Origin: a virus
Lineage: Duplodnaviria > Caudoviricetes
Virus record (IMG/VR): IMGVR_UViG_3300037400_003286
DNA length: 64,000 bases
Direction: 5' to 3' (one strand)
In this document: piece by piece, positions 1 to 22,285 of the stretch
Layout of the letters: each line of letters opens with the position of its first letter
Numbering within the stretch: the first letter of the stretch is position 1
Notes under the pieces: model-generated
What the model saw: the letters and a program-made list of their open reading frames with translations, nothing else
Databases searched by the model: none
Told to the model about the DNA's origin: nothing
Program-made: the position numbers and the translations under genes

Positions 1-560
1 GTAAGAAAACGACTAATTGTTTGTCTTGATATATTAGGAATTTGTTCAGCAATTTTATAAGCAGATAATCCTTGTTTTCTTAATTCAATTATTTTATCTT
101 TTATTTCTCCTCTTATTAATGCTCTTGATGGCAAATATCCTTCAAAATTTTCTCTTGCTGTTATTATAGATTTCTTTCCTCCACAACTTCTACTACAACA
201 AGGATTTGGATGTGTACTCAAATCTTTTTTATCAAATAGAAATTCTGTTCCGCATATAGGACAAATACAAACAACCATCTCTTTCTTTACATGATCTTTT
301 CTTATATTATATCCTTTTGATATTACTTGAAGATTCTCTATACGATCATCTGTTTTATCACCATTTATATGATCAACATGATCTCCACCAGCAACGTCAC
401 AATTATAATGACTTGTATATAAATATTTAGCATATGATATTGTTTTCCTTGTTCCATCGTTATGATATAAACAAGACATCCTTCTATTTTCTCTATTAAC
501 TATAACATATACTTTTCTATATCCTTTCTTTTTATAAAATTCTGACAGTTCTATTTTCAT
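1..560 (-). CDS. HNH homing endonuclease (runs off the window edge)
   Basis: Not in the ORF track. Manual translation from ATG at 560 gives MKIELSEFY...DHVDHINGDKTDDRIENLQVISKGYN...CICPICG, an HNH motif plus a Zn knuckle. Confidence 0.85.
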   Translation of the reverse strand, partial: MKIELSEFYKKKGYRKVYVIVNRENRRMSCLYHNDGTRKTISYAKYLYTSHYNCDVAGGDHVDHINGDKTDDRIENLQVISKGYNIRKDHVKKEMVVCICPICGTEFLFDKKDLSTHPNPCCSRSCGGKKSIITARENFEGYLPSRALIRGEIKDKIIELRKQGLSAYKIAEQIPNISRQTISRFL

Positions 561-4466: not shown

Positions 4467-5033
4467 TTATTGATAATCTTTATCTTGTCTTATACCGTAT
4501 TTATGAAAATATCTAAGTGGCCTCCATTTATGGCCGTTCACATAGAATCCCCATTTATGTCTTGGCTTGCCCTCAAACATTAATGTCCAGGCTCCACCTT
4601 TAGGTATCTTAAGATAATGTCTATCCTCAGCCTTTGAAAACCAGATAGACTGTCCCATATGAAAGAAATTATACCATGAGTTGAATATACCTTCTACGTA
4701 ACAATGTTTTTCGTTGAATACATGTTTCGCTAAATCATATTCATCAAATTCAGATTCTATTGGTCCTTTTAATACAAGATCCTTAGGATTCTTATCTGGT
4801 TCAATTGGTTTAACATTCCAATATTTTCCTTTAATTACTATAGATAGTAAATCTGCCGAATGATCATGAAAATACCTGTTATCATCAGATTTGATCCAAT
4901 GGTGTATTCTCATAGAATATCCGAACAAAATGAAAGTCCATCTGATCAAGTATGGATCATCTGGATAACCAAGCTTTTCAGCCCATCTTATCTGGAAATT
5001 CTTGAATTTCTTTGTGTTGCTTGATCCAATCAT
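4467..5033 (-). CDS. Cupin-like phage protein
   Basis: His-rich pattern YLIRW...IHHWIKSDDNRYFHDH...RH...WTL...KWGFY. Confidence 0.55.
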   Translation of the reverse strand: MIGSSNTKKFKNFQIRWAEKLGYPDDPYLIRWTFILFGYSMRIHHWIKSDDNRYFHDHSADLLSIVIKGKYWNVKPIEPDKNPKDLVLKGPIESEFDEYDLAKHVFNEKHCYVEGIFNSWYNFFHMGQSIWFSKAEDRHYLKIPKGGAWTLMFEGKPRHKWGFYVNGHKWRPLRYFHKYGIRQDKDYQ

Positions 5034-5175
5034 CTCGTAGTATATCTAAAGTGAAAGCCACAGTGCTGACATGCGAATACTTCGCCATGCTCATCAACAG
5101 CATTATTCAGGAAAAACTCAGTTTCCTTATGACATTTTGGACATTTAATCTTCATATTCTTATTTGTTTATTATG

Positions 5176-5304
5176 TCAATGGTGGAGGACTCGAACCCAG
5201 GATATGTTTGCAACCATATCCCTGTTTCCAATCTTCAGCATGTTCAGAATTTGTACGTCTACAACCTTTCCTCGCTGACGCTTTACCAATTAAGCTAACC
5301 ATTA
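5176..5304 (-). ncRNA. tRNA-like gene A with an expanded anticodon loop and a T-stem insertion
   Basis: Acceptor TAATGGT/ACCATTG, D arm, TCAGC/GCTGA stem around a 34-nt loop. A 29-nt insert splits the T stem GGA|GG/CCTCC. Confidence 0.75.
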
Positions 5305-5309
5305 TTATA

Positions 5310-5367
5310 CAGAAGTCGTTGTTTGGTCGTTAATTACAGTAACTTGATTGTTTGCTGTGAGACTTCC
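5310..5367 (-). ncRNA. ACAGCAA stem-closed RNA, copy E1
   Basis: GGAAGTC-tc-ACAGCAAA...GACTTCT-G. Confidence 0.75.
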
Positions 5368-5373
5368 TTATTG

Positions 5374-5563
5374 TCAGACGTGTGGGACTTGCACCTTAAT
5401 TCTTGTCTCGTACTAAGTATTTCTACCACGATCGTATTTCCGAAACCAGAATCCGTTTTGAACACAACCTTCAGCATGTTCGAGATTCACGGCGACGTAT
5501 CATTCGTCAATGCTGTCTCTCCGTTATCCGTCACTGACGCTCTACTAATTGAGCTAACGTCCG
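5374..5563 (-). ncRNA. tRNA-like gene B with an expanded anticodon loop and a T-stem insertion
   Basis: Acceptor CGGACGT/ACGTCTG, D arm, TCAGT/GCTGA stem around a 57-nt loop. A 67-nt insert splits the T stem GTG|GG/CCCAC. Confidence 0.75.
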
Positions 5564-5618
5564 TTGTTTCTGTTGCAAATATACAACTTTATTTTGATAT
5601 ATGAAAACGTTTTATGAA

Positions 5619-6686: not shown

Positions 6687-7925
6687 TTAATAATCTAAAT
6701 TATATAGATTTTTAAACTTTATTGGATTGAACAGCAATCCACTATTGATTATCTTATCTTTTACATAAGAATCACCAACTACTTTCCTCATTATGTTTAT
6801 CGCTCCATTGATATCTGCATTTATAACCTTTCCTGTATAACTTAAATATAAACCTCGTTTAACTCTTTTACCATTGTATTTTTCGTGAAATTCTATTGAT
6901 TCAAGAGATAACGAATCACATTTACTTGTATAGGATTCTTCATTTGTTATAACTATTATACCAACACATTCACATTTGTATTTCAGCATAGAAATCAATC
7001 TATCATAAGACACATTAACAAAATTCTGATTTGTAACCTTACCCAATTTGATGGAGTCTTTCCAACAATTGTTATAACCTATAATAAGATTACCTATTTT
7101 GTTTTGCATAAGATAATTTACTATGTGTCTGCTTACTTTGTGATAAACATCATCCAACTGATTATATCTTTTATTCCATAACTGATTTATTCTTTTTGAT
7201 TTTTTACATCCATTTTCTTTTTCTAATATTGATTTGTATTTTGATATAGTCTTGTTGAAATACTGGTTCTTTGATTTAATCTGTTTTCCAGAATATATAA
7301 CTGGATACTGATCCTCTGTAACAAGTGTAACAAGATTTGACAAGCCTAAATCTATACTTGCGAATTTCTTATAATCAACATAACATCTATATTCATCAAC
7401 TGTATATATAATTTCTATTTCTGTAAATCCATTCTTAGGATTAACTCTTATTTCGTTAAAATGATCTATACGTTCTTTGTATTCCTTATATTGTGGTATC
7501 TTAATATATAGATCTTTTGAAAAATATATTTTACTGTTCTTTATATAAGCACTTTGGTTTGTATATATGAGTTGATGATAACCATTCTTTCTCTTATACT
7601 GTGGTAATTTAGGGCAACCTTTAAATTTTTCTGGATGATTTTTATATTCTTTAATTGATTTAAAATATCCTTTTACATTCTTATCAAGAGCTTTAAGACA
7701 CTGCTGTGATACTTGAGCTTTCAGTTTCTTATAGTTTATTTCCCCATCCAGATTTACAAGATTATACATATATTTGTTCAAATCATAATATGAAACATAT
7801 TTGTTGTCTTTAAGCATTTGATTTACATAATATAATGCCTGGTTATACAAATCCTTTGAATATCTGCATAACTCAAACAACTTATCATTGTTTTCATAAT
7901 TATTGAACTTATACACTAATCTCAT
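6687..7925 (-). CDS. tnpB: TnpB RNA-guided endonuclease
   Basis: LYNQALY N-terminus, SIDLGL (RuvC-I), EESYTSK, NADINGAINI (RuvC-III). Confidence 0.92.
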   Translation of the reverse strand: MRLVYKFNNYENNDKLFELCRYSKDLYNQALYYVNQMLKDNKYVSYYDLNKYMYNLVNLDGEINYKKLKAQVSQQCLKALDKNVKGYFKSIKEYKNHPEKFKGCPKLPQYKRKNGYHQLIYTNQSAYIKNSKIYFSKDLYIKIPQYKEYKERIDHFNEIRVNPKNGFTEIEIIYTVDEYRCYVDYKKFASIDLGLSNLVTLVTEDQYPVIYSGKQIKSKNQYFNKTISKYKSILEKENGCKKSKRINQLWNKRYNQLDDVYHKVSRHIVNYLMQNKIGNLIIGYNNCWKDSIKLGKVTNQNFVNVSYDRLISMLKYKCECVGIIVITNEESYTSKCDSLSLESIEFHEKYNGKRVKRGLYLSYTGKVINADINGAINIMRKVVGDSYVKDKIINSGLLFNPIKFKNLYNLDY

Positions 7926-8514
7926 TTGTTAAGTCGTCCTCAAGTATCATCATTTTCTTTTTTCTTCTTGCAGAATACATTCTCGTAGAAAAACAATGTA
8001 TTAAAGAAATTATATCTGAAAATATTTCTTTCTCATCGTTTTCTGAATTTATCTGTCCGTTTACAACAATAAGTTCGCAGTTGAAGTTCTTAAACAAATC
8101 TCTCCACATATCAAACGATACACGAGTTAATCTATCTTTGTTTTCGATTATAACGGTCTTTATTTTTCTCTCTATTACAAGACTCAATATTTCATTGAAA
8201 GATTTTCTGTCATAATTCAATCCGCTTGCTATATCAGAATAAACCTTATCTACACCATATCCATTTTTATTTGCATATTCAGTTATCCTTTTGATTTGAT
8301 TTTCAAGATCTTTTTTCTGTTTTTGTGTAGATACCCTCGCATATATAACACATTTTCTATCCGTAGATATATGAGCGGCTGATAATACACTATCTTCATC
8401 ATAGTCATATTGACCATTTGGTAAAGGAGTATATTTTATCTTACCGTCTTTAACATATTTCGTCAAGGTTGGTCGAGTGATCTTTAATATTTTTAATACA
8501 TCTTTAGACTTCAT
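7909..8514 (-). CDS. tnpA: IS607 transposase (serine recombinase with N-terminal HTH)
   Basis: MerR-like HTH, IYARVST.KQK.DL, DIASG, DRLTR. Confidence 0.93.
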   Translation of the reverse strand: MKSKDVLKILKITRPTLTKYVKDGKIKYTPLPNGQYDYDEDSVLSAAHISTDRKCVIYARVSTQKQKKDLENQIKRITEYANKNGYGVDKVYSDIASGLNYDRKSFNEILSLVIERKIKTVIIENKDRLTRVSFDMWRDLFKNFNCELIVVNGQINSENDEKEIFSDIISLIHCFSTRMYSARRKKKMMILEDDLTNEISV

Positions 8515-10910: not shown

Positions 10911-10996
10911 CGGAGAGCGTAGGTGTCGATCCCAATACCTTTCACAGTACCAACAGTTTTCAAGACTGCGCTGTAGGCCGCTACAGTTCACTCTCC
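10911..10996 (-). tRNA. tRNA-Ser(TGA)
   Basis: GGAGAG acceptor, anticodon arm GCAGT-CTTGAAA-ACTGT, long variable arm. Confidence 0.85.
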
Positions 10997-10999
10997 AAG

Positions 11000-12013
11000 T
11001 TATTCAATATTGTGTCTTCTTCTATATCTTAATAATGCGTTTTTACCAACATTAAATCGTTTTGCTATTTCAACCCACGAGGAGCCACACTCTCTCATAG
11101 ATTTTAATACATCAATATCTATTTTATCTTCCGATTCACAGTGTATCATTGATTCATTTGGTTCTCTCCCAATTACCCATCCATTTGACAAATATTCATC
11201 AATGTCTTGCTTCTTTATTTTTTTATTTTTTCCATCCTTCTTTATCCAACAAGTACCAAACTGGGAATTCTTTTCTCCTTGTTGATCGTTATTTAATCGA
11301 TGAGTTTCACTCATTTTTTGTTTTGTTTCATCTTTATGTTTTCTTCCAACCCAAAAATAAACTAATTCTCCAGATACGTATCGTGGATCATCTTTCTTTA
11401 CCATGTACGCATTTCCGTTTTTATCTTTTACTAATACCATATCTTGTGACACATAAAATAAAATACCTTGTTTAATTCTCTCATCGTTAACATCAACTAA
11501 AAATCTATTTGAATTTGAATCTTTAACAACTGCTTTATTTTTTGTTACTCCGTAAACAACTCCAGATCTGACAAGATAATGATCCTTTGGTAAATGATAT
11601 ATGTTTCCCTCAACATCTCTATAATTACCATATCCAATCGTATGGCCAACATATTCACCGCTTTTTATTTTTGGATCGTCAACTGGAGCAAAGAACACAT
11701 TTCCATTTTTGTCTTTAACTGTTGCTAAACCATATGAATTGAAACCAAATCCACCACACATTAAGTTATAACAATTTTGGTCTCTAACTAAATCTTCTGT
11801 AACAATTTCAGATTCATAAGCAAAAGCATCTTCTTTTGTTTCAAAGAATTTTAATATTTCCTTTGTAAAGAACTCTACGCCGTATTTTTTATATGCACGG
11901 TGTAATCTTTTACCAGATCCCATATATCCGTCATTTAAATCATCTGTAGAATGAACTCCATAATAAAAATGTCCGTTTATGTTATTAGTTATCTTATAAA
12001 AATAATGGTACAT
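11000..12013 (-). CDS. GIY-YIG (Seg-like) homing endonuclease
   Basis: YFYKITNNING.FYYGVHST...YMGSG...YN, internal VKDKNGN repeats, NUMOD3-like H.DETK.KMS, C-terminal HTH. Confidence 0.88.
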   Translation of the reverse strand: MYHYFYKITNNINGHFYYGVHSTDDLNDGYMGSGKRLHRAYKKYGVEFFTKEILKFFETKEDAFAYESEIVTEDLVRDQNCYNLMCGGFGFNSYGLATVKDKNGNVFFAPVDDPKIKSGEYVGHTIGYGNYRDVEGNIYHLPKDHYLVRSGVVYGVTKNKAVVKDSNSNRFLVDVNDERIKQGILFYVSQDMVLVKDKNGNAYMVKKDDPRYVSGELVYFWVGRKHKDETKQKMSETHRLNNDQQGEKNSQFGTCWIKKDGKNKKIKKQDIDEYLSNGWVIGREPNESMIHCESEDKIDIDVLKSMRECGSSWVEIAKRFNVGKNALLRYRRRHNIE

Positions 12014-12085: not shown

Positions 12086-12249
12086 TATAGGTGACTGGAC
12101 TCGAACCAGCGACGACTGCATCGCTCCGCTAGACAGACTCGAACTGTCTTTTATCCATATATGCATCTCGCACTAACGGAGTTTCATTTTTGTCTGTCTT
12201 TCGTTGACAGTAACCAAATGCAGCGATCTACCAACTGATCTACACCTAT
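12086..12249 (-). tRNA. tRNA-Pro(TGG) interrupted by a 91-nt insert (12123-12213)
   Basis: Removing the insert gives a 73-nt cloverleaf with anticodon arm CTGCA-TTTGGGA-TGCAG. Confidence 0.8.
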
Positions 12250-12256
12250 ATATAAT

Positions 12257-12319
12257 CAGCACACCTAACTTAACATAAACCCATAATTATTGTTAGTAAA
12301 ATTTGCTGTATTGTGTGCC
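12257..12319 (-). ncRNA. ACAGCAA RNA, copy E3
   Basis: GGCACAC-aat-ACAGCAAA...GTGTGCT-G. Confidence 0.75.
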
Positions 12320-12325
12320 ATAACT

Positions 12326-12386
12326 CAAGAGGCTGCTTGTCATGAATTAAAAGTTCATTGCTAAAAAAGTTTGCTGTATGCCTCTC
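12326..12386 (-). ncRNA. ACAGCAA RNA, copy E4
   Basis: GAGAGGC-at-ACAGCAAA...GCCTCTT-G. Confidence 0.75.
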
Positions 12387-12398
12387 ATCATATATCTT

Positions 12399-12475
12399 CA
12401 GAAGACGTTTAATTTTCACCACTTCACCTGAAACTAATTAACATGATTATGAAAATAGTTTGCTGTATGCCTTCC
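12399..12475 (-). ncRNA. ACAGCAA RNA, copy E5
   Basis: GGAAGGC-at-ACAGCAAA...GTCTTCT-G. Confidence 0.75.
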
Positions 12476-13637: not shown

Positions 13638-14492
13638 CTATTCTATTAATTCTTTTATCTTTTTGTATTTTCTATTTAAATATATATCATCTTTTTCATT
13701 ATATATGCGTTTCAAAAAATATATTATTTTTCCTATATTTGCTGATCTTATACAAGAACTTTTATATTTACCATTTGAAGATTGTTTGATTTTAAAATCT
13801 ATTCCATATTTTTGTTTTAAATAACTTATTATATAACCCCAATCTTGTTCATATCTTCCAGATAAAGAAAGTTGTACAACACGTTTTTTTGTTTTTGAAA
13901 CGTATATACATCCATCACCGTCAAATAATCCCCTTAAAAAATATTCTATATAACATTCTGGTACATAGTTAAATATTTTTTCATGCGACTCTATAGATTT
14001 TGGATATTTACCTAAAGATTTAAGACGTGTTATGTTCTTATTATCGTAATCAGTGTAATAAAAAGTTTTTTGTACTTGTCTTCCTTCTCTATTTCTAATG
14101 TATGTTTTAAAACTCGCAACTTTTAATAATATATGTTCTATATCATCAGCGTCACTTTTTGCTATTTCTAATATAAGATTTTTATTTCTGCTTATGTATC
14201 CATCTGACCAAAAATATCCCAAAAAATATGCAAGTTCTTTTGGATTATCAGTTAAATTGAAATCAATTGAAAGATATTTTGTATTATCATAAAAAATTAA
14301 ACTATCTATTTCATCATCTGTTGCTTTACATGCGTATTTACAATAACCAAGTTCTTCATAACATTTCGTTACAGCACCACTTATTGATCTATTTAGTTTT
14401 TCCGCACAAAGACGAATACCAAATTTATCAACGTTTTCTTTTAGAAATTGAATTTCCTCATCTGAATATTGTTTATTGATTTTATTGCTCAT
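13638..14492 (-). CDS. LAGLIDADG homing endonuclease
   Basis: LAYFLGYFWSDG and FLRGLFDGDG motifs, terminal LNRK. Confidence 0.92.
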   Translation of the reverse strand: MSNKINKQYSDEEIQFLKENVDKFGIRLCAEKLNRSISGAVTKCYEELGYCKYACKATDDEIDSLIFYDNTKYLSIDFNLTDNPKELAYFLGYFWSDGYISRNKNLILEIAKSDADDIEHILLKVASFKTYIRNREGRQVQKTFYYTDYDNKNITRLKSLGKYPKSIESHEKIFNYVPECYIEYFLRGLFDGDGCIYVSKTKKRVVQLSLSGRYEQDWGYIISYLKQKYGIDFKIKQSSNGKYKSSCIRSANIGKIIYFLKRIYNEKDDIYLNRKYKKIKELIE

Positions 14493-14508: not shown

Positions 14509-15135
14509 TTATGTATTTATCCACACACTCATATTTACATTTTTATTAATTTGAAAATCCATTTTCGATTTTAATTCATGCCATGAAATTGGTTTATAAT
14601 TATTAAAATCAACACCAACATCATATTGTGATGGAAAAGCAAAATCTATAATTCTTTTTATATCTTTATTATATTCTAAAATATTAATATTTTTTCGAAA
14701 GTGTGTATGTCCATGAATAGCGTATACATTATGTTGTTCCCTATATGCACCACCAAAGCACAGGAAAGGAAAATGGTTCAAGTATATTGATACGTCATCA
14801 ACTTGTATATACATTTGTTGTGTAACCATTTCAAAATACTTCGCATATCCTTCACGATAGTTTTTCATGTCGTGATTTCCCATGATCAGATAGTGTTTTC
14901 CTTTCAGTCTTGACAGTGCATCATTCCAGACTTGTGATCCTCCGATTGCAAAATCACCGAGATCAAACACTATTCCATCTTCATGTACGGTTTTATTCCA
15001 GTTGTCAATGAGCGTCTCGTTCATTTCCTCGATATTAGAGAATGGCCTGTGGCTATACTCTATGATGTTCTTATGACCTATGTGAAGATCTGATGTAAAA
15101 AACACCTTATCGGGGTTGAACTTGAATTCTTTCAT
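14509..15135 (-). CDS. Calcineurin-like metallophosphoesterase
   Basis: FTSDLH.GH, LGD, GNHD, H.P, HGHTH, DVGVD. Confidence 0.92.
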   Translation of the reverse strand: MKEFKFNPDKVFFTSDLHIGHKNIIEYSHRPFSNIEEMNETLIDNWNKTVHEDGIVFDLGDFAIGGSQVWNDALSRLKGKHYLIMGNHDMKNYREGYAKYFEMVTQQMYIQVDDVSIYLNHFPFLCFGGAYREQHNVYAIHGHTHFRKNINILEYNKDIKRIIDFAFPSQYDVGVDFNNYKPISWHELKSKMDFQINKNVNMSVWINT

Positions 15136-15878: not shown

Positions 15879-16553
15879 TTATTTCTTTTTCTTCGTCATT
15901 ATATTATCAACCATACCATATTCAACAGCTTCCTGTGCATTCATCCAGTAGTCACGATCTGCATCAACAAGGATTTTTTCATAAAGCTGTCCAGTGTGAT
16001 CAGCGATAATATGAAGAAGTTCCTCTTTTGTCTTCTGCATTTCCTTTGCTGCAATCATGATGTCTGATGCCTGTCCTTCTGTTCCACCAAGAGGCTGATG
16101 AATAAGAACACGGGAGTGTGGAAGTATGTTACGTTTTCCTTTTTCTCCAGCACAGAGAAGAACAGCACCCATAGAAGCAGCCATTCCAGTACATATTGTA
16201 GACACGTCTGGGTTGATAAGCTGCATAGTATCATAGATACCTAGACCAGACGATACGTGTCCTCCTGGTGTGTTCAGATAAAGAGAAATATCTGATTTAT
16301 CATCGTTTGATGAAAGGTAAAGAAGCTGTGCCTGTACAATATTGGCAACATCATCATCAATAGGCACACCAAGGAAAATAATACGATCGGCCTGTAAACG
16401 GCTGAAAATATCCATTTGTGCTACATTTAGCTTACGTTCCTCAAGAATTGTAGGATTAATGTAAGCGTCGTTGAATTTAGCGTAACCATCAAGCGTCAAA
16501 GAGGAAAGTCCTCGATCTCTTGCATAGAGATAAAAATCTTTTCTATTATTCAT
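15879..16553 (-). CDS. clpP: ATP-dependent Clp protease proteolytic subunit
   Basis: DIFSRL..DRIIFLG, YLNTPGG, GMAASMG (Ser), IHQP (His), DRD (Asp). Confidence 0.97.
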   Translation of the reverse strand: MNNRKDFYLYARDRGLSSLTLDGYAKFNDAYINPTILEERKLNVAQMDIFSRLQADRIIFLGVPIDDDVANIVQAQLLYLSSNDDKSDISLYLNTPGGHVSSGLGIYDTMQLINPDVSTICTGMAASMGAVLLCAGEKGKRNILPHSRVLIHQPLGGTEGQASDIMIAAKEMQKTKEELLHIIADHTGQLYEKILVDADRDYWMNAQEAVEYGMVDNIMTKKKK

Positions 16554-16645: not shown

Positions 16646-17491
16646 TTATATTGTTTGAGCATCTATTTTGATAGAATCTGCTTTTTCTTTTTTGCGATCT
16701 AAATAAACAGTAGCATTATCATACAAATAATTATAAAGATTTAAAAAATTATTATTTCCTCCAATTTTAATTTCCCAAACATCTTTATCTTTATATTTGT
16801 ATATATTAGCTGTTGTTAGACAAACATTTTTCAAATTATCAAGGATCCATGTTAAGAAATTTTTAGTCCCTAAGAAAGATATATTTCCATATGGCTTCCA
16901 ACTATCTTTCTTAGCTTTACATTGATAAACACTTCCATCACCATTATAATATCCACGAATAAAATGCGATAATAATTCATTTGGTATCTTATTCAAAGGT
17001 GGTGGCTGTAGTATTTTACTTTTATTGTAGAATACACCTTTATCTTGTAAACAATCAACAAACACCTTATTTCTTATACTTATAGCACACGCATTAACAA
17101 CACCATAAGGAGAATTGATGGTTTCTTTAATAATTTTATGATCGCTTTTAATCGCTTTTTTGAATTTTACAAGATGATCTAAATCTTTAATGTTAAGTTT
17201 AATACCAAAAACCTCATGATTGTTACACTTTGTAATATAACCATCAGCATAAATAAACCCTAACCAATAAGCTTTTTCTTCTGTATCTATTTTATCAAAG
17301 AAATATTCATCCACTGGTAATCTGTGTGATTCACTAAGATTTTTAATATGAATATTATTTTCTTTTAATATCCTTATTATTACGCTTCGATCTTTGCCAA
17401 ATCGCTTTGCTATATATAAAACGCTTTTTGTTTTATATAGTGTTAAAATTGTATTTAATTGAGACTCGTCTGGAATCCATTTCATATGCAT
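16646..17491 (-). CDS. LAGLIDADG homing endonuclease
   Basis: AYWLGFIYADG and HFIRGYYNGDG, terminal LDRK. Confidence 0.92.
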   Translation of the reverse strand: MHMKWIPDESQLNTILTLYKTKSVLYIAKRFGKDRSVIIRILKENNIHIKNLSESHRLPVDEYFFDKIDTEEKAYWLGFIYADGYITKCNNHEVFGIKLNIKDLDHLVKFKKAIKSDHKIIKETINSPYGVVNACAISIRNKVFVDCLQDKGVFYNKSKILQPPPLNKIPNELLSHFIRGYYNGDGSVYQCKAKKDSWKPYGNISFLGTKNFLTWILDNLKNVCLTTANIYKYKDKDVWEIKIGGNNNFLNLYNYLYDNATVYLDRKKEKADSIKIDAQTI

Positions 17492-17789: not shown

Positions 17790-19142
17790 TTATCCTACAG
17801 CTTTCTTGTATTCATCAAGAAGTTTGTTAAGGAACGCTGTTCCATCAAAACCAACCTCAAGGAACTTAAGAAGCATTGGAGAATATCCAGACAGATAGAT
17901 ATTACCATTCTGATCCATCTCAGGTATCGTGATGTTTCTCTCGTTAAGGTTCCACCACACAATCTTTGTTGTGTATCCATGTTCCTTCCAGAGTCTTTCA
18001 AGTTCTGACTTTGACTGGCTAGAACCAACATCAAACTCACAATCAGAAAGAACAACCAAATATTCAGGAAGATCTGTAAGATCCTTCAGAAGTTCCATAA
18101 CCTTGCCGAAGTCAGTGTTAGAGCAATCTCCAGTATACATAGACTGGATCTCACGCTCATACTGATTCTTACAGTTTGAGAGGTTCTGCTTACGGTTCTC
18201 TGTACGATAACCCCATCCGTCATTATACACGTTCTCTACACCAAGTGTAAGAAGAGAAGGACGAGAGCTAAAGGTGATAACCTTATTTGGTGCATATGTG
18301 CTGCACTTTGCGATGTAATGGCCAATAGCATAAGCCTTACCGATAGAATCGTTTCCGTTGCACATAGAACCAGATGTATCAACGATAGGAATTGCGTTGA
18401 TCTTGATCTTCTCAATCTTATCGAAGAAGAGAACAGGATCGATCTTGTCACGGTTACGATAGATGTCGTACACTGTGGTTGTAGCGATCTTGAGTTCCTT
18501 CTTTCCAGAACGAACATCCTCAAGATACTTCTCAAATCTTGCCTTTGTATCTTCCTTTGTTTTGAAGCGATTGAAGTACTTGATCATAGCAAGAGAAGGG
18601 ACCTGCTCGAACTTGATCTCACGAGTATTCTTACGAGAAAGCTTGTTTTCTGTTGTATTACACTTGATAAAGTGTCCATACTGCTGCTTATTCATGCCCC
18701 AGTACTTTGCAATCTGACGTGCAATCATTAGGTTCTTGGAACTGTAGCGAGGCATCCACTTCTTTACAAGTTCATTACCATTTTCAATTTCTCTCTTGAG
18801 ATAGTCAAGAATATCAGCATCAATGTAATAATCACGACGCTTTGAATCATAAACGAATAGATCATCAACACGACCAGACTTCACAATATCCTCGATAGAA
18901 CATCCAGCCATGTGCATCAGCACACGTCCAAGATCTCTACGTCCGAGACCGAATCTTGGATCACGTACAAAACGAGCAAACAACTGGTCTTTCTCAGTGC
19001 TACCGATTTGTACCTCTGACAAATGATTCTGATAATACTCTGTCAAAAACAACAGGTTTAACAGATTGTCATCATTAATCTTGGTGAAAGCGATATCACC
19101 GTTCTCAGTTCTCTTCTGATTGAAAATTTCTTCGAGCTTCAT
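17790..19142 (-). CDS. DUF2828-like protein: helical N-domain plus C-terminal vWA domain (Ro60/TROVE-like architecture)
   Basis: TENG, RDPRFGLGRR, GRVDDL, KWMPR, VPSLAM; MIDAS motif DTSGSM...NTDF...LSDCEFD; IVWWNL, SGYSP. Confidence 0.8.
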   Translation of the reverse strand: MKLEEIFNQKRTENGDIAFTKINDDNLLNLLFLTEYYQNHLSEVQIGSTEKDQLFARFVRDPRFGLGRRDLGRVLMHMAGCSIEDIVKSGRVDDLFVYDSKRRDYYIDADILDYLKREIENGNELVKKWMPRYSSKNLMIARQIAKYWGMNKQQYGHFIKCNTTENKLSRKNTREIKFEQVPSLAMIKYFNRFKTKEDTKARFEKYLEDVRSGKKELKIATTTVYDIYRNRDKIDPVLFFDKIEKIKINAIPIVDTSGSMCNGNDSIGKAYAIGHYIAKCSTYAPNKVITFSSRPSLLTLGVENVYNDGWGYRTENRKQNLSNCKNQYEREIQSMYTGDCSNTDFGKVMELLKDLTDLPEYLVVLSDCEFDVGSSQSKSELERLWKEHGYTTKIVWWNLNERNITIPEMDQNGNIYLSGYSPMLLKFLEVGFDGTAFLNKLLDEYKKAVG

Positions 19143-19769: not shown

Positions 19770-20681
19770 TTATTCATAACCATCATATGCTGATTTCCAC
19801 TCACCGTTCTCACCTATGATTGCAACATATCCCTCAGAAGGATCATAATGATCTTCACAATATGGACAAATCCATCCATTAGATAAGTATCTTGCTGGCT
19901 TACCACATTCTATGCAGGTATGATAACTTATGTTTTCATATTTAGCTAATAATTTATACAACTCATGAGATCCGTAATTACAATATATCTGTAGCGATCC
20001 AAACTTTTCCTTAATATCCATTATTCTCCACTTATAACGAAATTTATCCTTCCTAAGCTGTTGATCGATCTCTTTCAACAATTCCTTACCAAAAGCTTTA
20101 TACCATCCTTTATATTGTTTAAGTGCATCCCATTCTGTATGTGTAGGAATACAATGGAAAAGTTGTAGCACATAATCATTCAGAAAATCGGCAACCTTAA
20201 TCTTAAAGTAAAGCCATTTATCATCAATTATGTTATCAATAAAGAATGTCTTTTCTGGAAGTTCATAGTTACGGTTGGGCACAACATAGAAATTAATCAT
20301 ATTGTTTCTATATTCAAATCCGATACGATCGATACTTCTTGAATGTTGAATAGGTATCTGTCTAATTGTTTTATCCTGATTCCTTAGAATAACATAACTG
20401 TCTGTTATTTCAAATTTAAGATCAATATTGAAATCATTCTTAAATGTTCTCTGTAACAGTCTTTCTCCATGTTCACACCATTCATCAATAGTATAAACAT
20501 GAGTGCACAATGTTTTAACAGCATGTTTATAATTATTAACGTGATATTGGTGAAGTTTCCAATTGTTATAGTGTAAACCAGTAAACCTGTTCCTCGGATA
20601 GAGGAACGGGTACTTAATACACATATATGTACTGGTTATCGCTTTCTTTATTTTATGTAATATTTTCATTATTCCTCCCAA
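19770..20681 (-). CDS. Hypothetical phage protein with C-terminal Zn ribbon
   Basis: IKEKFGSL.IY...TCIECG...C.YC..H. Confidence 0.7.
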   Translation of the reverse strand: MGGIMKILHKIKKAITSTYMCIKYPFLYPRNRFTGLHYNNWKLHQYHVNNYKHAVKTLCTHVYTIDEWCEHGERLLQRTFKNDFNIDLKFEITDSYVILRNQDKTIRQIPIQHSRSIDRIGFEYRNNMINFYVVPNRNYELPEKTFFIDNIIDDKWLYFKIKVADFLNDYVLQLFHCIPTHTEWDALKQYKGWYKAFGKELLKEIDQQLRKDKFRYKWRIMDIKEKFGSLQIYCNYGSHELYKLLAKYENISYHTCIECGKPARYLSNGWICPYCEDHYDPSEGYVAIIGENGEWKSAYDGYE

Positions 20682-22285
20682 TAATGTTTGGCATCACTGT
20701 AATAATGATCATTAATCTCATCATAAGTCTTGAATCCTCCGTCCTTACGAATTGCAGCAAACGCTTCCTTAATGTTATACATAGGATTATTTTCACGTTC
20801 ATCATAAGGAACAAACTTCATGTTATAAGGCTTCTCAAGATTATAAGATGATTTATATGCCTGCTGACTAACACCATCAATATACATTGAGAATTCTCCC
20901 TCATTAAGTGTCATTGTCTTAGCATATGAGAAATTATCCTTAATCCACCAGAAATATCTGTTAGCGAAAGTTGTATCAATACTGACACAACTAGCATCTT
21001 TGAAAATACTTAGAAGATCTTCCTTTGTAAACTCCTTATATTTCTGAGTATTACCACGACCAGTTGTCTTATATCCAAGATAAAGAACAGGCATCCATAC
21101 ACCTTTGAATCTGTTAGAAATCTTATTTGTCAATTCAACACCAAGATACTCAGGAATCAAATGAGCTACAATATACTTATGACTTGCATCCCAACTTGTT
21201 TTACCCTTGTTAATAGTATTCTCGAAATCAATAAGTATGTCGGCATCTTCGACACTGAACACAGATACACCAATACCATCAACATATTTCATAAAAATAG
21301 AATTGATGTTTTTGTCTTTAATTACCTTTTTACAATCTTTTGCATTAATTGTAACATTGATGATGTGTCCCTGTTCCTTGATATATTGGAAAAGTTCCTC
21401 AAGATTAGGATAAAGCAGAATATTACCACCACCTATTGAGAATTCGATACGATGATAATTGTTCTTACGTGGTGTTCCTGCGTTTGAAATCATTGATTTC
21501 AGGAACGAAACATCAGCGTGCTTACCGTTCTTTGTGGCACTCATGTAACACATAGGACATCCATGTTCACATGCATTCGTAATCTTAAGATCAATCAGTT
21601 CTGGATAATCAGGAACAATTTCACCTTTAGATGTTGCGAAACGGATTTTTCCACAGAAACTGTTCTTTATAGGTCTGCGATCTGGATCATATCCATCATC
21701 TTCGTTTTTGTCTTTAATATGAACATAGTCACGAGAATCACCATATCCTACCCAATAGTTACCGTTTTTGGTTACACCCATATGTTGGAACGAATTGCTA
21801 CTATATTCGATCATATCTGGATCTGGACACTCAACATGTCCTTCAATAGTATCATATACGAAATCAGCCTCATCAGATCCACCAACAATTATGATGTCAT
21901 CATCTTCAATTACATTCTTCAGATAATCAACACTAGCCTCTATATTGTTAGGAAATGCAAGATTACCTCTACAATACATACCGAAACTATACTCAGTCTT
22001 ATCTTCCATCTCATCCTTGATAAGAGGGAAATACTGTTTCATCTCTGGATAGATAGATGACATGATCTTAACCAGAGGCTCATTATACATAATATCAGCG
22101 AGAACATACTTGATCTTTGCTTCACGGGATGCTGCAATCGTACTTGTGAATCGATCATAATAATTCGTCTCGAAAATATCAAGATCCTTGAAAAGCTCAC
22201 CGTCATTACGATAGATAAGCGAATGTGTTGAACTACTGTTTGTTGCTAGTCCCTTTCTGAAATTCTTTAGATAAACTGCTTTCAT
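20669..22285 (-). CDS. Radical SAM protein with an N-terminal TNSSS-motif domain
   Basis: IDLKITNACEHGCPMCY (CxxxCxxC), SIGGGN; N-terminus RKGLATNSSSTHS. Confidence 0.85.
   Translation of the reverse strand: MKAVYLKNFRKGLATNSSSTHSLIYRNDGELFKDLDIFETNYYDRFTSTIAASREAKIKYVLADIMYNEPLVKIMSSIYPEMKQYFPLIKDEMEDKTEYSFGMYCRGNLAFPNNIEASVDYLKNVIEDDDIIIVGGSDEADFVYDTIEGHVECPDPDMIEYSSNSFQHMGVTKNGNYWVGYGDSRDYVHIKDKNEDDGYDPDRRPIKNSFCGKIRFATSKGEIVPDYPELIDLKITNACEHGCPMCYMSATKNGKHADVSFLKSMISNAGTPRKNNYHRIEFSIGGGNILLYPNLEELFQYIKEQGHIINVTINAKDCKKVIKDKNINSIFMKYVDGIGVSVFSVEDADILIDFENTINKGKTSWDASHKYIVAHLIPEYLGVELTNKISNRFKGVWMPVLYLGYKTTGRGNTQKYKEFTKEDLLSIFKDASCVSIDTTFANRYFWWIKDNFSYAKTMTLNEGEFSMYIDGVSQQAYKSSYNLEKPYNMKFVPYDERENNPMYNIKEAFAAIRKDGGFKTYDEINDHYYSDAKHYWEE

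Follow-up and report, generated by a model that had tools for sequence, protein, structure and literature searches.

Two neighbouring genes for transfer RNA (tRNA) look-alikes were analysed on the minus strand of IMG/VR virus record IMGVR_UViG_3300037400_003286, at positions 5,176 to 5,563 of the 64,000-nt stretch referred to here as the window. Each gene is interrupted in the anticodon loop and again in the T stem, and homologues with inserts at the same places were found in other phage genomes, usually directly upstream of a gene for a phage cupin. T-stem covariation, compensatory changes and recurring hairpins indicate that the two genes and their inserts encode functional, folded RNA, not debris, and the inserts are most likely structural expansion arms rather than introns. 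In the reading that we favour, for which the balance stands about even, the genes would be members of a conserved family of phage RNAs derived from tRNA-Val, unspliced and non-decoding mimics that are co-transcribed with the cupin and work with it.

Anatomy of the two tRNA look-alikes

Gene 1 and gene 2 are paralogues (Table 1). Gene 1 has a 7-bp acceptor stem (UAAUGGU/ACCAUUG), a 4-bp D stem (GCUU/AAGC), a 5-bp anticodon stem (UCAGC/GCUGA), the variable loop AGAUU and the discriminator A; gene 2 has a 7-bp acceptor stem (CGGACGU/ACGUCUG), a 4-bp D stem, a 5-bp anticodon stem (UCAGU/GCUGA), the variable loop AGGUU and again the discriminator A. The elements of the L-shape elbow are present, with 7 of 7 acceptor, 4 of 4 D and 5 of 5 anticodon stem positions paired, and all of them covary family-wide. 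The enlarged anticodon loop of gene 1 is laid out as 5′ GAGG, the hairpin UUGUA-GACG-UACAA and 3′ UGAACAU, and that of gene 2 as 5′ GAC, an irregular GACG-capped hairpin and a single-stranded CGAACAU. The T stem of both genes is interrupted after pair 3, so that GGA, 29 nt and GG pair to CCUCC in gene 1, and GUG, 67 nt and GG pair to CCCAC in gene 2. The intact acceptor, D and anticodon stems, the 34-nt and 57-nt loops with their GA and GAACAT ends and the 29-nt and 67-nt T-stem inserts had all been described in an earlier, sequence-only reading of this DNA, and each was read in the sequence where that reading had placed it.

Standard detection of tRNA genes failed at both loci. Neither gene was called by ARAGORN; gene 1 scored 24.4 bits with the Rfam tRNA model, below the 29-bit threshold, and gene 2 gave no match. 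A continuous 5-bp T stem is lacking in both, as is a canonical 7-nt loop with U33 and a purine at position 37, since the last seven nucleotides of the loops (UGAACAU and CGAACAU) place a G at position 33. The T loop (UGCAAGU) and D loop (AAUUAGUA) of gene 2 are non-canonical, the elbow pairs being canonical only in gene 1, and gene 2 folded no better than shuffled sequence (z = -0.62). Positions 99-104 of the gene 2 RNA (GUGUUC, the T-stem triplet and the first three insert bases) can also pair with positions 83-88 (GAACAU), and RNAalifold favours this pairing over the cloverleaf; it is probably due to chance, because gene 1 has no equivalent.

Homologues beside a phage cupin gene

No close DNA homologue of the two genes was found among GenBank phages, where only short tRNA-like stretches were matched. 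As DNA searches yielded nothing, the 188-aa cupin encoded downstream was taken as the search anchor, which returned 38 IMG/VR loci with 48-80% protein identity. The RNA-cupin arrangement was present in about 30 of these 38 loci, a frequency that is biased upwards because most loci were found by cupin seeding, and the RNA usually preceded the cupin gene directly and followed the same promoter box as in the window. IMG/VR megaphage contigs yielded about 20 distinct homologues, each no farther than about 1.5 kb from the cupin gene. They were parsed with a structural parser in place of a covariance model, because no reliable single alignment could be made of inserts that range from 7 to 143 nt. 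Most relatives have a single RNA copy, without an adjacent RNA of the ACAGCAA type that separates the two window genes. The distance from the RNA to the cupin start downstream is 20-60 nt in most relatives, and this gap holds no terminator; in three loci (L028, L029 and L036) the RNA is downstream of the cupin gene. The cupin is single-copy in five related genomes, four of them complete, and when the 360-kb genome of one relative (G004) was scanned in full for this structure, with no cupin seed, exactly one such RNA came up, 283 nt upstream of the lone cupin gene. The features by which the family was defined, a single-copy phrog_4786 cupin within about 1.5 kb and a promoter of its own, are both found with the window genes.

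Members of the family were also present, unannotated, in named phages. In the marine Paraglaciecola phage GD1 a copy with an encoded CCA lies upstream of the cupin gene; the 50-nt insert in its anticodon loop contains the hairpin GCU-GACG-AGC, and the canonical loop UUGACAA comes after the insert. Two tandem unannotated copies of a Phe type (anticodon GAA) are present in each of Caulobacter phage CcrColossus and Brevundimonas phage Bajun, upstream of a methyltransferase gene and the cupin gene, and Rhizobium phage RHph_Y1_11 has one Phe-type copy in the same setting, which overlaps the annotated start of the coding sequence (CDS) named 'DNA methyltransferase'. The inserts of the Phe-type copies are about 160-230 nt long (207 nt in the parsed CcrColossus copy).

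An exact-motif search with GAACATGCTGAAGRTTG was of little use in IMG/VR, where all 22 matches were chance occurrences within coding DNA. The same motif in metagenome contigs matched 120 loci, of which only two were true relatives: L156, from a strain that is nearly identical, and L096, which is related to gene 2 at 92% identity. The L096 RNA (16-205, plus strand) has gene 2-type inserts but a gene 1-like acceptor stem, and occupies the place of gene 1, directly before the zinc-ribbon open reading frame (ORF); this mix of features suggests recombination between the paralogues.

Covariation and compensatory substitutions

Across the 20 distinct members, the acceptor, D, anticodon and split T stems were all found to covary. 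The split T stem was analysed in ten distinct members with inserts of 1, 3, 4, 26, 29, 30, 67, 84, 84 and 89 nt. The triplet that completes the stem sits at a fixed offset past the anticodon stem (5 nt in nine members and 4 nt in the tenth), and five covarying combinations of triplet and 3′ strand were seen (GUG/CAC, GGU/ACC, GGG/CCC, ACA/UGU and GGA/UCC). All 10 triplets pair with the 3′ strand of their own gene, against only 25 of 90 combinations of a triplet with the strand of another member.

Close relatives showed the same constraint within the inserts. Gene 2 and L096 differ by 16 substitutions and no insertions or deletions, and none of the substitutions breaks a predicted pair: eight form four compensatory pairs, five are wobble-compatible and three are unpaired. 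Two of the compensatory pairs are in the acceptor stem and two (42/73 and 53/62) are inside the loop insert, one of the latter two being in the stem under the GACG cap. Four of the differences fall in the gene 2 T insert, three of them pair-keeping (wobble-compatible) and one unpaired. Gene 1 and L156 have four differences, two of which convert G84-C105 to U-A in the T-insert hairpin.

The inserts had been described in the sequence-only reading as unrelated in sequence and identical in position. Their identical position was borne out, whereas sequence relatedness was underestimated: a GACG-capped hairpin was found in 6 of the 20 loop inserts, both window genes and GD1 included, against 0.05 expected from shuffles, and the T-insert hairpin with the loop motif GGUUGCAAAC is common to gene 1, L025 and L060. 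Random decay of the homologues, which the same reading had listed among the outcomes that would refute it, was not seen, since inserts are position-conserved across about 20 lineages and the stems covary. The comparative data point to arms that emerge at 32/33 and 51/52 and whose folding is kept by selection.

Valine-type anticodon loop

The sequence N-A-C was present at positions 34-36 in all cupin-adjacent members from Bacteroidota phages and in GD1 (unfiltered parse), mostly followed by A and then by U or A before the 3′ anticodon strand. Alternative readings of the anticodon as GAA or CAU were rejected, as only N-A-C holds a fixed register to the stem family-wide. The wobble base 34 varies between A, U, G and C, with A34, which is unusual for a bacterial tRNA, being the most frequent. 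A73 is invariant among the cupin-adjacent members, C1-G72 is found in 18 of 20, and G45 is usual. In both window genes N34-A35-C36-A37-U38 forms a single-stranded 3′ side of the loop and is accompanied by A73 and G45. The valine identity set comprises A35, C36, A73, G20 and G45 (PMC9976931). Position 33 is U in only 8 of the 20 members. The Val-like character of the loop end and of A73, noted from the sequence alone, is therefore strongly supported, as N-A-C holds without exception among the Bacteroidota-phage members and for GD1, whereas the accompanying proposal that the fold hides the anticodon did not hold: the 3′ half of the loop (positions 34-38) is its most conserved, single-stranded part.

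A normal tRNA-Val(UAC) gene was also present in the complete relatives G001, G002 and G004, in G002 directly after the cupin gene, and a second decoder would be redundant in these phages.

Insert length and splicing signatures

At both sites insert size forms a continuum that begins at 1 nt and extends past 100 nt. Loop lengths across the family run from 7, 8, 8 and 12 nt through 34 nt to 143 nt, and T-stem inserts from 0, 1, 3 and 4 nt through 26 nt to 89 nt; in five short members (L032, L033, L035, L039 and L048; 74-79 nt in total) the loop measures 7-12 nt and the T-stem bulge 0-3 nt. Inserts of only 1-4 nt are too short to be introns.

Signatures of known splicing routes were searched for at several levels. 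Rfam intron or ribozyme matches were found neither in the window region (at E values up to 10) nor in GD1 nor in the 207-230-nt CcrColossus inserts. The archaeal-type route that short inserts at non-canonical sites had brought to mind was not borne out, since a bulge-helix-bulge motif was absent at the junctions of both genes and no EndA-family gene (PF01974) was found in five related phage genomes, in which search archaeal controls were detected. The motif calls for two 3-nt bulges on opposite strands, separated by 4 bp. At the gene 2 junction a 3-nt bulge on the 5′ side leads into a 4-bp helix (35-38/78-81), and the opposite strand has 7 unpaired nucleotides adjoining the anticodon stem and a 2-nt bulge.

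The transcribed array

The sequence-only reading had given the two genes their own promoter and an ACAGCAA RNA between them, and both elements were located (Table 1). The box TAnnTTTG, which we take to be the Bacteroidota-type -7 consensus, lies in front of gene 2 and also precedes the homologues in L024, L025, L026, L030 and L060. Behind this one promoter the order is gene 2, ACAGCAA RNA, gene 1, zinc-ribbon ORF and cupin gene, with no terminator-like site from the promoter box to the cupin gene. The ACAGCAA RNA begins 8 nt past the gene 2 A73 and stops 6 nt short of gene 1, and the 143 nt from the end of gene 1 to the cupin start hold only the 41-aa zinc-ribbon-like ORF, which also follows the RNA in L026, L096 and L156. 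Opposite-strand ORFs at 5012-5278 and 5323-5604 were rejected as genes because neither had a credible family match.

The cupin alignment shows conserved His motifs, and no Pfam match and no sequence match in the Protein Data Bank (PDB) was found for the protein. Its structural model (predicted local distance difference test, pLDDT, 69) retrieved generic cupins with a template modelling (TM) score of about 0.4, and TYW5 was considered as a counterpart and set aside, as its rank of 46 in the fold search was too weak to use. Neighbours in the ESM Atlas were viral clusters and distant clusters resembling cysteine dioxygenase (CDO) only, and the sole contig found with an identical cupin was Logan SRR12668996.

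Further stem-closed ACAGCAA RNAs are present on the minus strand at 12257-12318, about 12326-12390 and about 12399-12470, and each ACAGCAA RNA of the window abuts a tRNA or a tRNA look-alike. Matches of these RNAs to the Rfam Dictyostelium Class I RNA family are sub-threshold (31.3 and 23.2 bits). A CAGCAA-bearing element is located within tRNA anticodon loops of the relatives L027 and L060.

Table 1 Features of the two-gene locus, of the remainder of the window and of relatives in cultured phages
Feature	Position	Strand	Evidence or remark
tRNA-Val look-alike 1 (gene 1), 129 nt	5304..5176	-	Rfam tRNA 24.4 bits; folding z-score -3.16; structural parse
Gene 1 enlarged anticodon loop, 34 nt	5273..5240	-	begins GA, ends GAACAU
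Gene 1 T-stem insert, 29 nt	5226..5198	-	hairpin with loop GUUGCAAA
tRNA-Val look-alike 2 (gene 2), 190 nt	5563..5374	-	structural parse; comparison with L096
Gene 2 enlarged anticodon loop, 57 nt	5532..5476	-	begins GA, ends GAACAU
Gene 2 T-stem insert, 67 nt	5462..5396	-	between positions 51 and 52
Presumed Bacteroidota-type -7 promoter box TATATTTG (TAnnTTTG)	5576..5583	-	13 nt upstream of gene 2
ACAGCAA RNA with closing stem, between the two look-alikes	5310..5366	-	Rfam Dicty_Class_I_RNA 31.3 bits, below the 41.5 threshold
Zinc-ribbon-like small ORF, 41 aa	5030..5155	-	weak PHROG matches only; between gene 1 and cupin gene
Phage cupin, 188 aa, annotated 'cysteine dioxygenase' (phrog_4786)	4467..5033	-	PHROG match E 1e-20
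Lak-type tRNA-Pro(UGG)-like gene	12249..12086	-	Rfam tRNA 47.3 bits; 88-nt insert at 36/37
Homing-endonuclease-like genes (HNH, GIY-YIG, two LAGLIDADG)	1827-2537, 11000-12013, 13638-14492, 16646-17491	-	scattered among tRNA genes
Calcineurin-like phosphoesterase	14509-15135	-	
Phage ClpP protease	15879-16553	-	
DUF2828/DUF7788 protein	17790-19142	-	
Radical SAM protein	20669-22285	-	
tRNA-Phe(GAA)-like genes of cultured phages	L063 1422-1694 and about 1715-1960; L065 about 1375-1950; L064 1780-2004		

Weighing of the explanations

The sequence-only reading had left two possibilities: tRNAs spliced by proteins, or scaffolds or decoys in the shape of a tRNA. The comparative data agree more closely with the second than with splicing, because of the size continuum, the unconserved U33, the coexisting normal tRNA-Val and the insert helices kept by compensatory change. 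Within it, a non-decoding mimic is favoured since the positions read by the synthetase are kept while the U-turn position is relaxed, A34 is frequent, a decoder would be redundant and the arms are structurally under selection. RNase P and RNase Z would cut at the tRNA-like ends and so free both RNAs, the ACAGCAA RNA and the downstream mRNA, and CCA would be added by the host CCA enzyme. Valyl-tRNA synthetase (ValRS) could read A35, C36 and A73 and would probably charge the RNAs, which would be barred from the ribosome because the U-turn is missing, a bulky arm flanks the anticodon and the T-stem arm lies on the surface bound by EF-Tu; the RNA might then serve as a substrate, carrier or regulator for the co-transcribed cupin. 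Several points weigh against this mimic reading. That the RNAs are valylated, are kept away from EF-Tu and the A site or meet the cupin at all is our inference; G20 of the valine identity set is U in the window genes; mycobacteriophage Bongo and Burkholderia phage AH2 have the cupin and no such RNA nearby; and the linkage frequency carries the seeding bias given above. To these are added the points that favour splicing.

If the genes were true tRNA-Val genes, ribozyme-less introns at 31/32 and 51/52 would be removed by an unknown endonuclease and a phage RNA ligase to give decoding tRNAs. Exact removal of the insert does give a canonical 7-nt loop of the Val or Phe type in some lineages, as expected for an intron at 31/32 (UUGACAA in GD1, CUUACAU in L046, AUGACAU in L051 and AUGAAGA in the alphaproteobacterial phages). 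The search for an RNA ligase elsewhere in the genome, proposed with the first reading, was positive in the relatives, with PF09414 ligase genes in five of five related genomes and RtcB in one of five, so that protein splicing stays within reach; in GD1 an RNA ligase and a phosphatase are encoded two genes upstream of the RNA, whereas none of RNA ligase, RtcB and Pnkp was found among the 40 window ORFs scanned. The window also carries an interrupted tRNA-Pro of the type published from Lak megaphages, and conserved insert helices could serve as recognition elements. However, the spliced product of both window genes would carry G33 and A34, a combination unknown for bacterial elongator tRNAs, the 8-12-nt loops and 1-4-nt T-stem bulges of the short members are unspliceable, and the low frequency of U33, the normal tRNA-Val(UAC) of three relatives and the missing bulge-helix-bulge, ribozyme (window genes) and EndA (five relatives) speak the same way, so that splicing is considered unlikely. 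Processing punctuation alone, in which tRNA-shaped handles for RNase P and RNase Z would free the ACAGCAA RNA and trim or stabilise the cupin mRNA, is less probable again: it would account for the exact bracketing of the ACAGCAA RNA, for the terminator-free 20-60 nt that mostly separate RNA and cupin start and for the other ACAGCAA RNAs abutting tRNAs, but it needs no N-A-C-A-U, A73, G45 or compensatorily kept folded arms, and it does not fit the three loci with the RNA downstream of the cupin gene or the many single-copy relatives without an adjoining ACAGCAA RNA. Anticodon nucleases often cut in the 5′ half of the anticodon loop, and the retention of the tRNA body and of the 3′ half of the loop with replacement of the 5′ half, in genes of an early, strongly promoted tRNA region, would suit cupin-independent, uncleavable decoys for a host tRNA-targeting defence nuclease or another tRNA-Val-binding factor. 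We know of no tRNA-Val nuclease, which counts against such decoys, and neither the T-stem arm nor the linkage to the cupin in phages of Bacteroidota, Gammaproteobacteria and Alphaproteobacteria would be explained, so that this explanation is thought slightly more improbable than punctuation. Decaying tRNA pseudogenes with random insertions would explain why tRNA detectors fail or score sub-threshold and why gene 2 folds poorly, but this is contradicted by the comparative data (conserved insert positions, covarying stems, no pair broken by 16 substitutions and a conserved promoter) and can hardly be credited.

An extension of the mimic reading, put forward tentatively, is a two-part module in which an RNA charged by ValRS and barred from EF-Tu and the ribosome would act as aminoacyl carrier, substrate or guide for the phage cupin, the expansion sites evolving freely in the manner of ribosomal RNA expansion segments. 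No published description of a cupin-linked family of tRNA look-alikes was found in the literature on phage tRNA introns, tRNA-like RNAs and T4 species 1 RNA. Genes that fail standard tRNA detectors are usually dismissed as pseudogenes or introns, whereas the comparative data here point to a selected family that spans gut megaphages, a marine phage and, in its Phe-type form, cultured phages of Caulobacter, Brevundimonas and Rhizobium, and that is tied to one phage-only predicted metal enzyme. If the RNAs are charged and kept off the ribosome, they would represent phage use of aminoacyl-tRNA-like molecules outside translation; if they are spliced, this would be two-site protein-dependent tRNA splicing in bacteria, which has never been shown before. 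Relatives in the cultured phages CcrColossus, Bajun and GD1 make both outcomes experimentally accessible, and annotation would benefit as well, one such gene being buried beneath an annotated CDS in RHph_Y1_11.

Genomic setting

The window is the tRNA region of a Lak-like megaphage, an assignment based on its tRNA content, on megablast, in which short stretches of Prevotella Lak megaphages were the sole matches, and on the relatives retrieved later, which are viral contigs of 360-500 kb. It is AT-rich (31-39% G+C), holds nearly all genes on the minus strand and gave 12 ARAGORN tRNA calls; a split terminase, a family B polymerase and a tail sheath gene are also encoded. Just upstream of the locus, an IS607-like pair at 6687-8514 (minus strand) consists of a serine recombinase (Resolvase and helix-turn-helix domains) and a TnpB with OrfB_IS605 and Cas12f-like TNB domains. 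A minus-strand element at 10911-10997 scored 47.5 bits with the Rfam tRNA-Sec model, against a threshold of 47, and had no ARAGORN call; its loop CUUGAAA suggests a class II tRNA-Ser(UGA) instead of a tRNA-Sec.

Three observations concern other RNAs of the relatives. A GOLLD-like RNA (RF02032; 98.9 bits, below the threshold of 150; E 8.5e-25) lies downstream of the cupin gene in L027 (4695-5101, plus strand) and adjoins tRNAs. The relative G001 encodes a transfer-messenger RNA (tmRNA; L189 6454-6853) with the tag GNYEYALAA. A tRNA with the amber-suppressor anticodon CUA in G002 (L191 8521-8592) suggests TAG recoding in this phage group.

Comparison with known systems

Archaeal non-canonical tRNA introns resemble the inserts in being short and in occupying several sites per tRNA gene, the T arm included, but they need a bulge-helix-bulge and EndA, neither of which was found at these junctions or in the five relatives, respectively, and the hosts here are bacteria. 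Group I introns likewise interrupt the anticodon loop of bacterial-type tRNA genes; they are built around a catalytic core and measure some 200 nt or more. Measured against an intron of at least about 200 nt with a P3-P9 core (RF00028), the inserts of the window genes, at 27-67 nt and with no Rfam intron match, do not belong to this class.

Nearer in origin are the tRNA introns of Lak megaphages, called 'enigmatic' when published (Devoto et al. 2019, PMC6784885), which are short, ribozyme-less, conserved inserts in tRNA anticodon loops of the same phage group. The Lak inserts are at 36/37-37/38 and comprise a UAC hairpin, a spacer rich in A residues and a mini-tRNA, and their removal restores canonical loops (PMC6784885). 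The tRNA-Pro(UGG)-like gene of the window is of this kind, its insert having the same three elements, of which the mini-tRNA shows a 7-bp acceptor (CUCCGUU/AGCGGAG) and a T arm, and removal would give the canonical Pro loop UUUGGGA. In contrast, genes 1 and 2 carry the insert 5′ of the anticodon and lack a mini-tRNA; their T stem is divided by another insert, and U33 is not regained on removal.

Among non-decoding RNAs, YrlA and the Y RNAs (RF02553) and rnaC and rnaD of phage T4 (species 1 and 2) may be looser analogues than the viral tRNA-like structures (TLS) discussed below. Y RNAs share with the window genes a noncoding nature, a tRNA-like module and a dedicated protein partner (Ro60/Rsr), and the window does encode a DUF2828/DUF7788 protein, whereas YrlA is topologically permuted, with its ends in the anticodon-side stem and a closed acceptor, and the partner would here be the cupin in place of Ro60. 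RF02553 gave no match at 5176-5563, and weak YrlA matches elsewhere span two adjacent tRNAs. The T4 RNAs are extra stable RNAs of 120-140 nt that end a tRNA cluster, with a canonical T arm in rnaC, but neither sequence kinship nor a Val-type loop could be demonstrated, T4 has no cupin neighbour, and the comparison is offered as a lead only; we know of no function for them.

The closest functional analogue would be the tymovirus TLS-Val, such as the one found in TYMV (turnip yellow mosaic virus). Both are viral, non-decoding RNAs with A35 and C36, and often A73, and reading by ValRS, known for TLS-Val (PMC9976931), would be shared by the phage RNAs; some tymovirus TLS-Val also tolerate large inserted stem-loops (PMC9976931). 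TLS-Val form the 3′ ends of RNA genomes and have a pseudoknotted acceptor and a normal 7-nt loop, whereas the RNAs described here are separate genes of a DNA phage with a normal acceptor stem and an enlarged loop. If they are indeed valylated, as the kept positions suggest, they would be a DNA-phage counterpart of TLS-Val.

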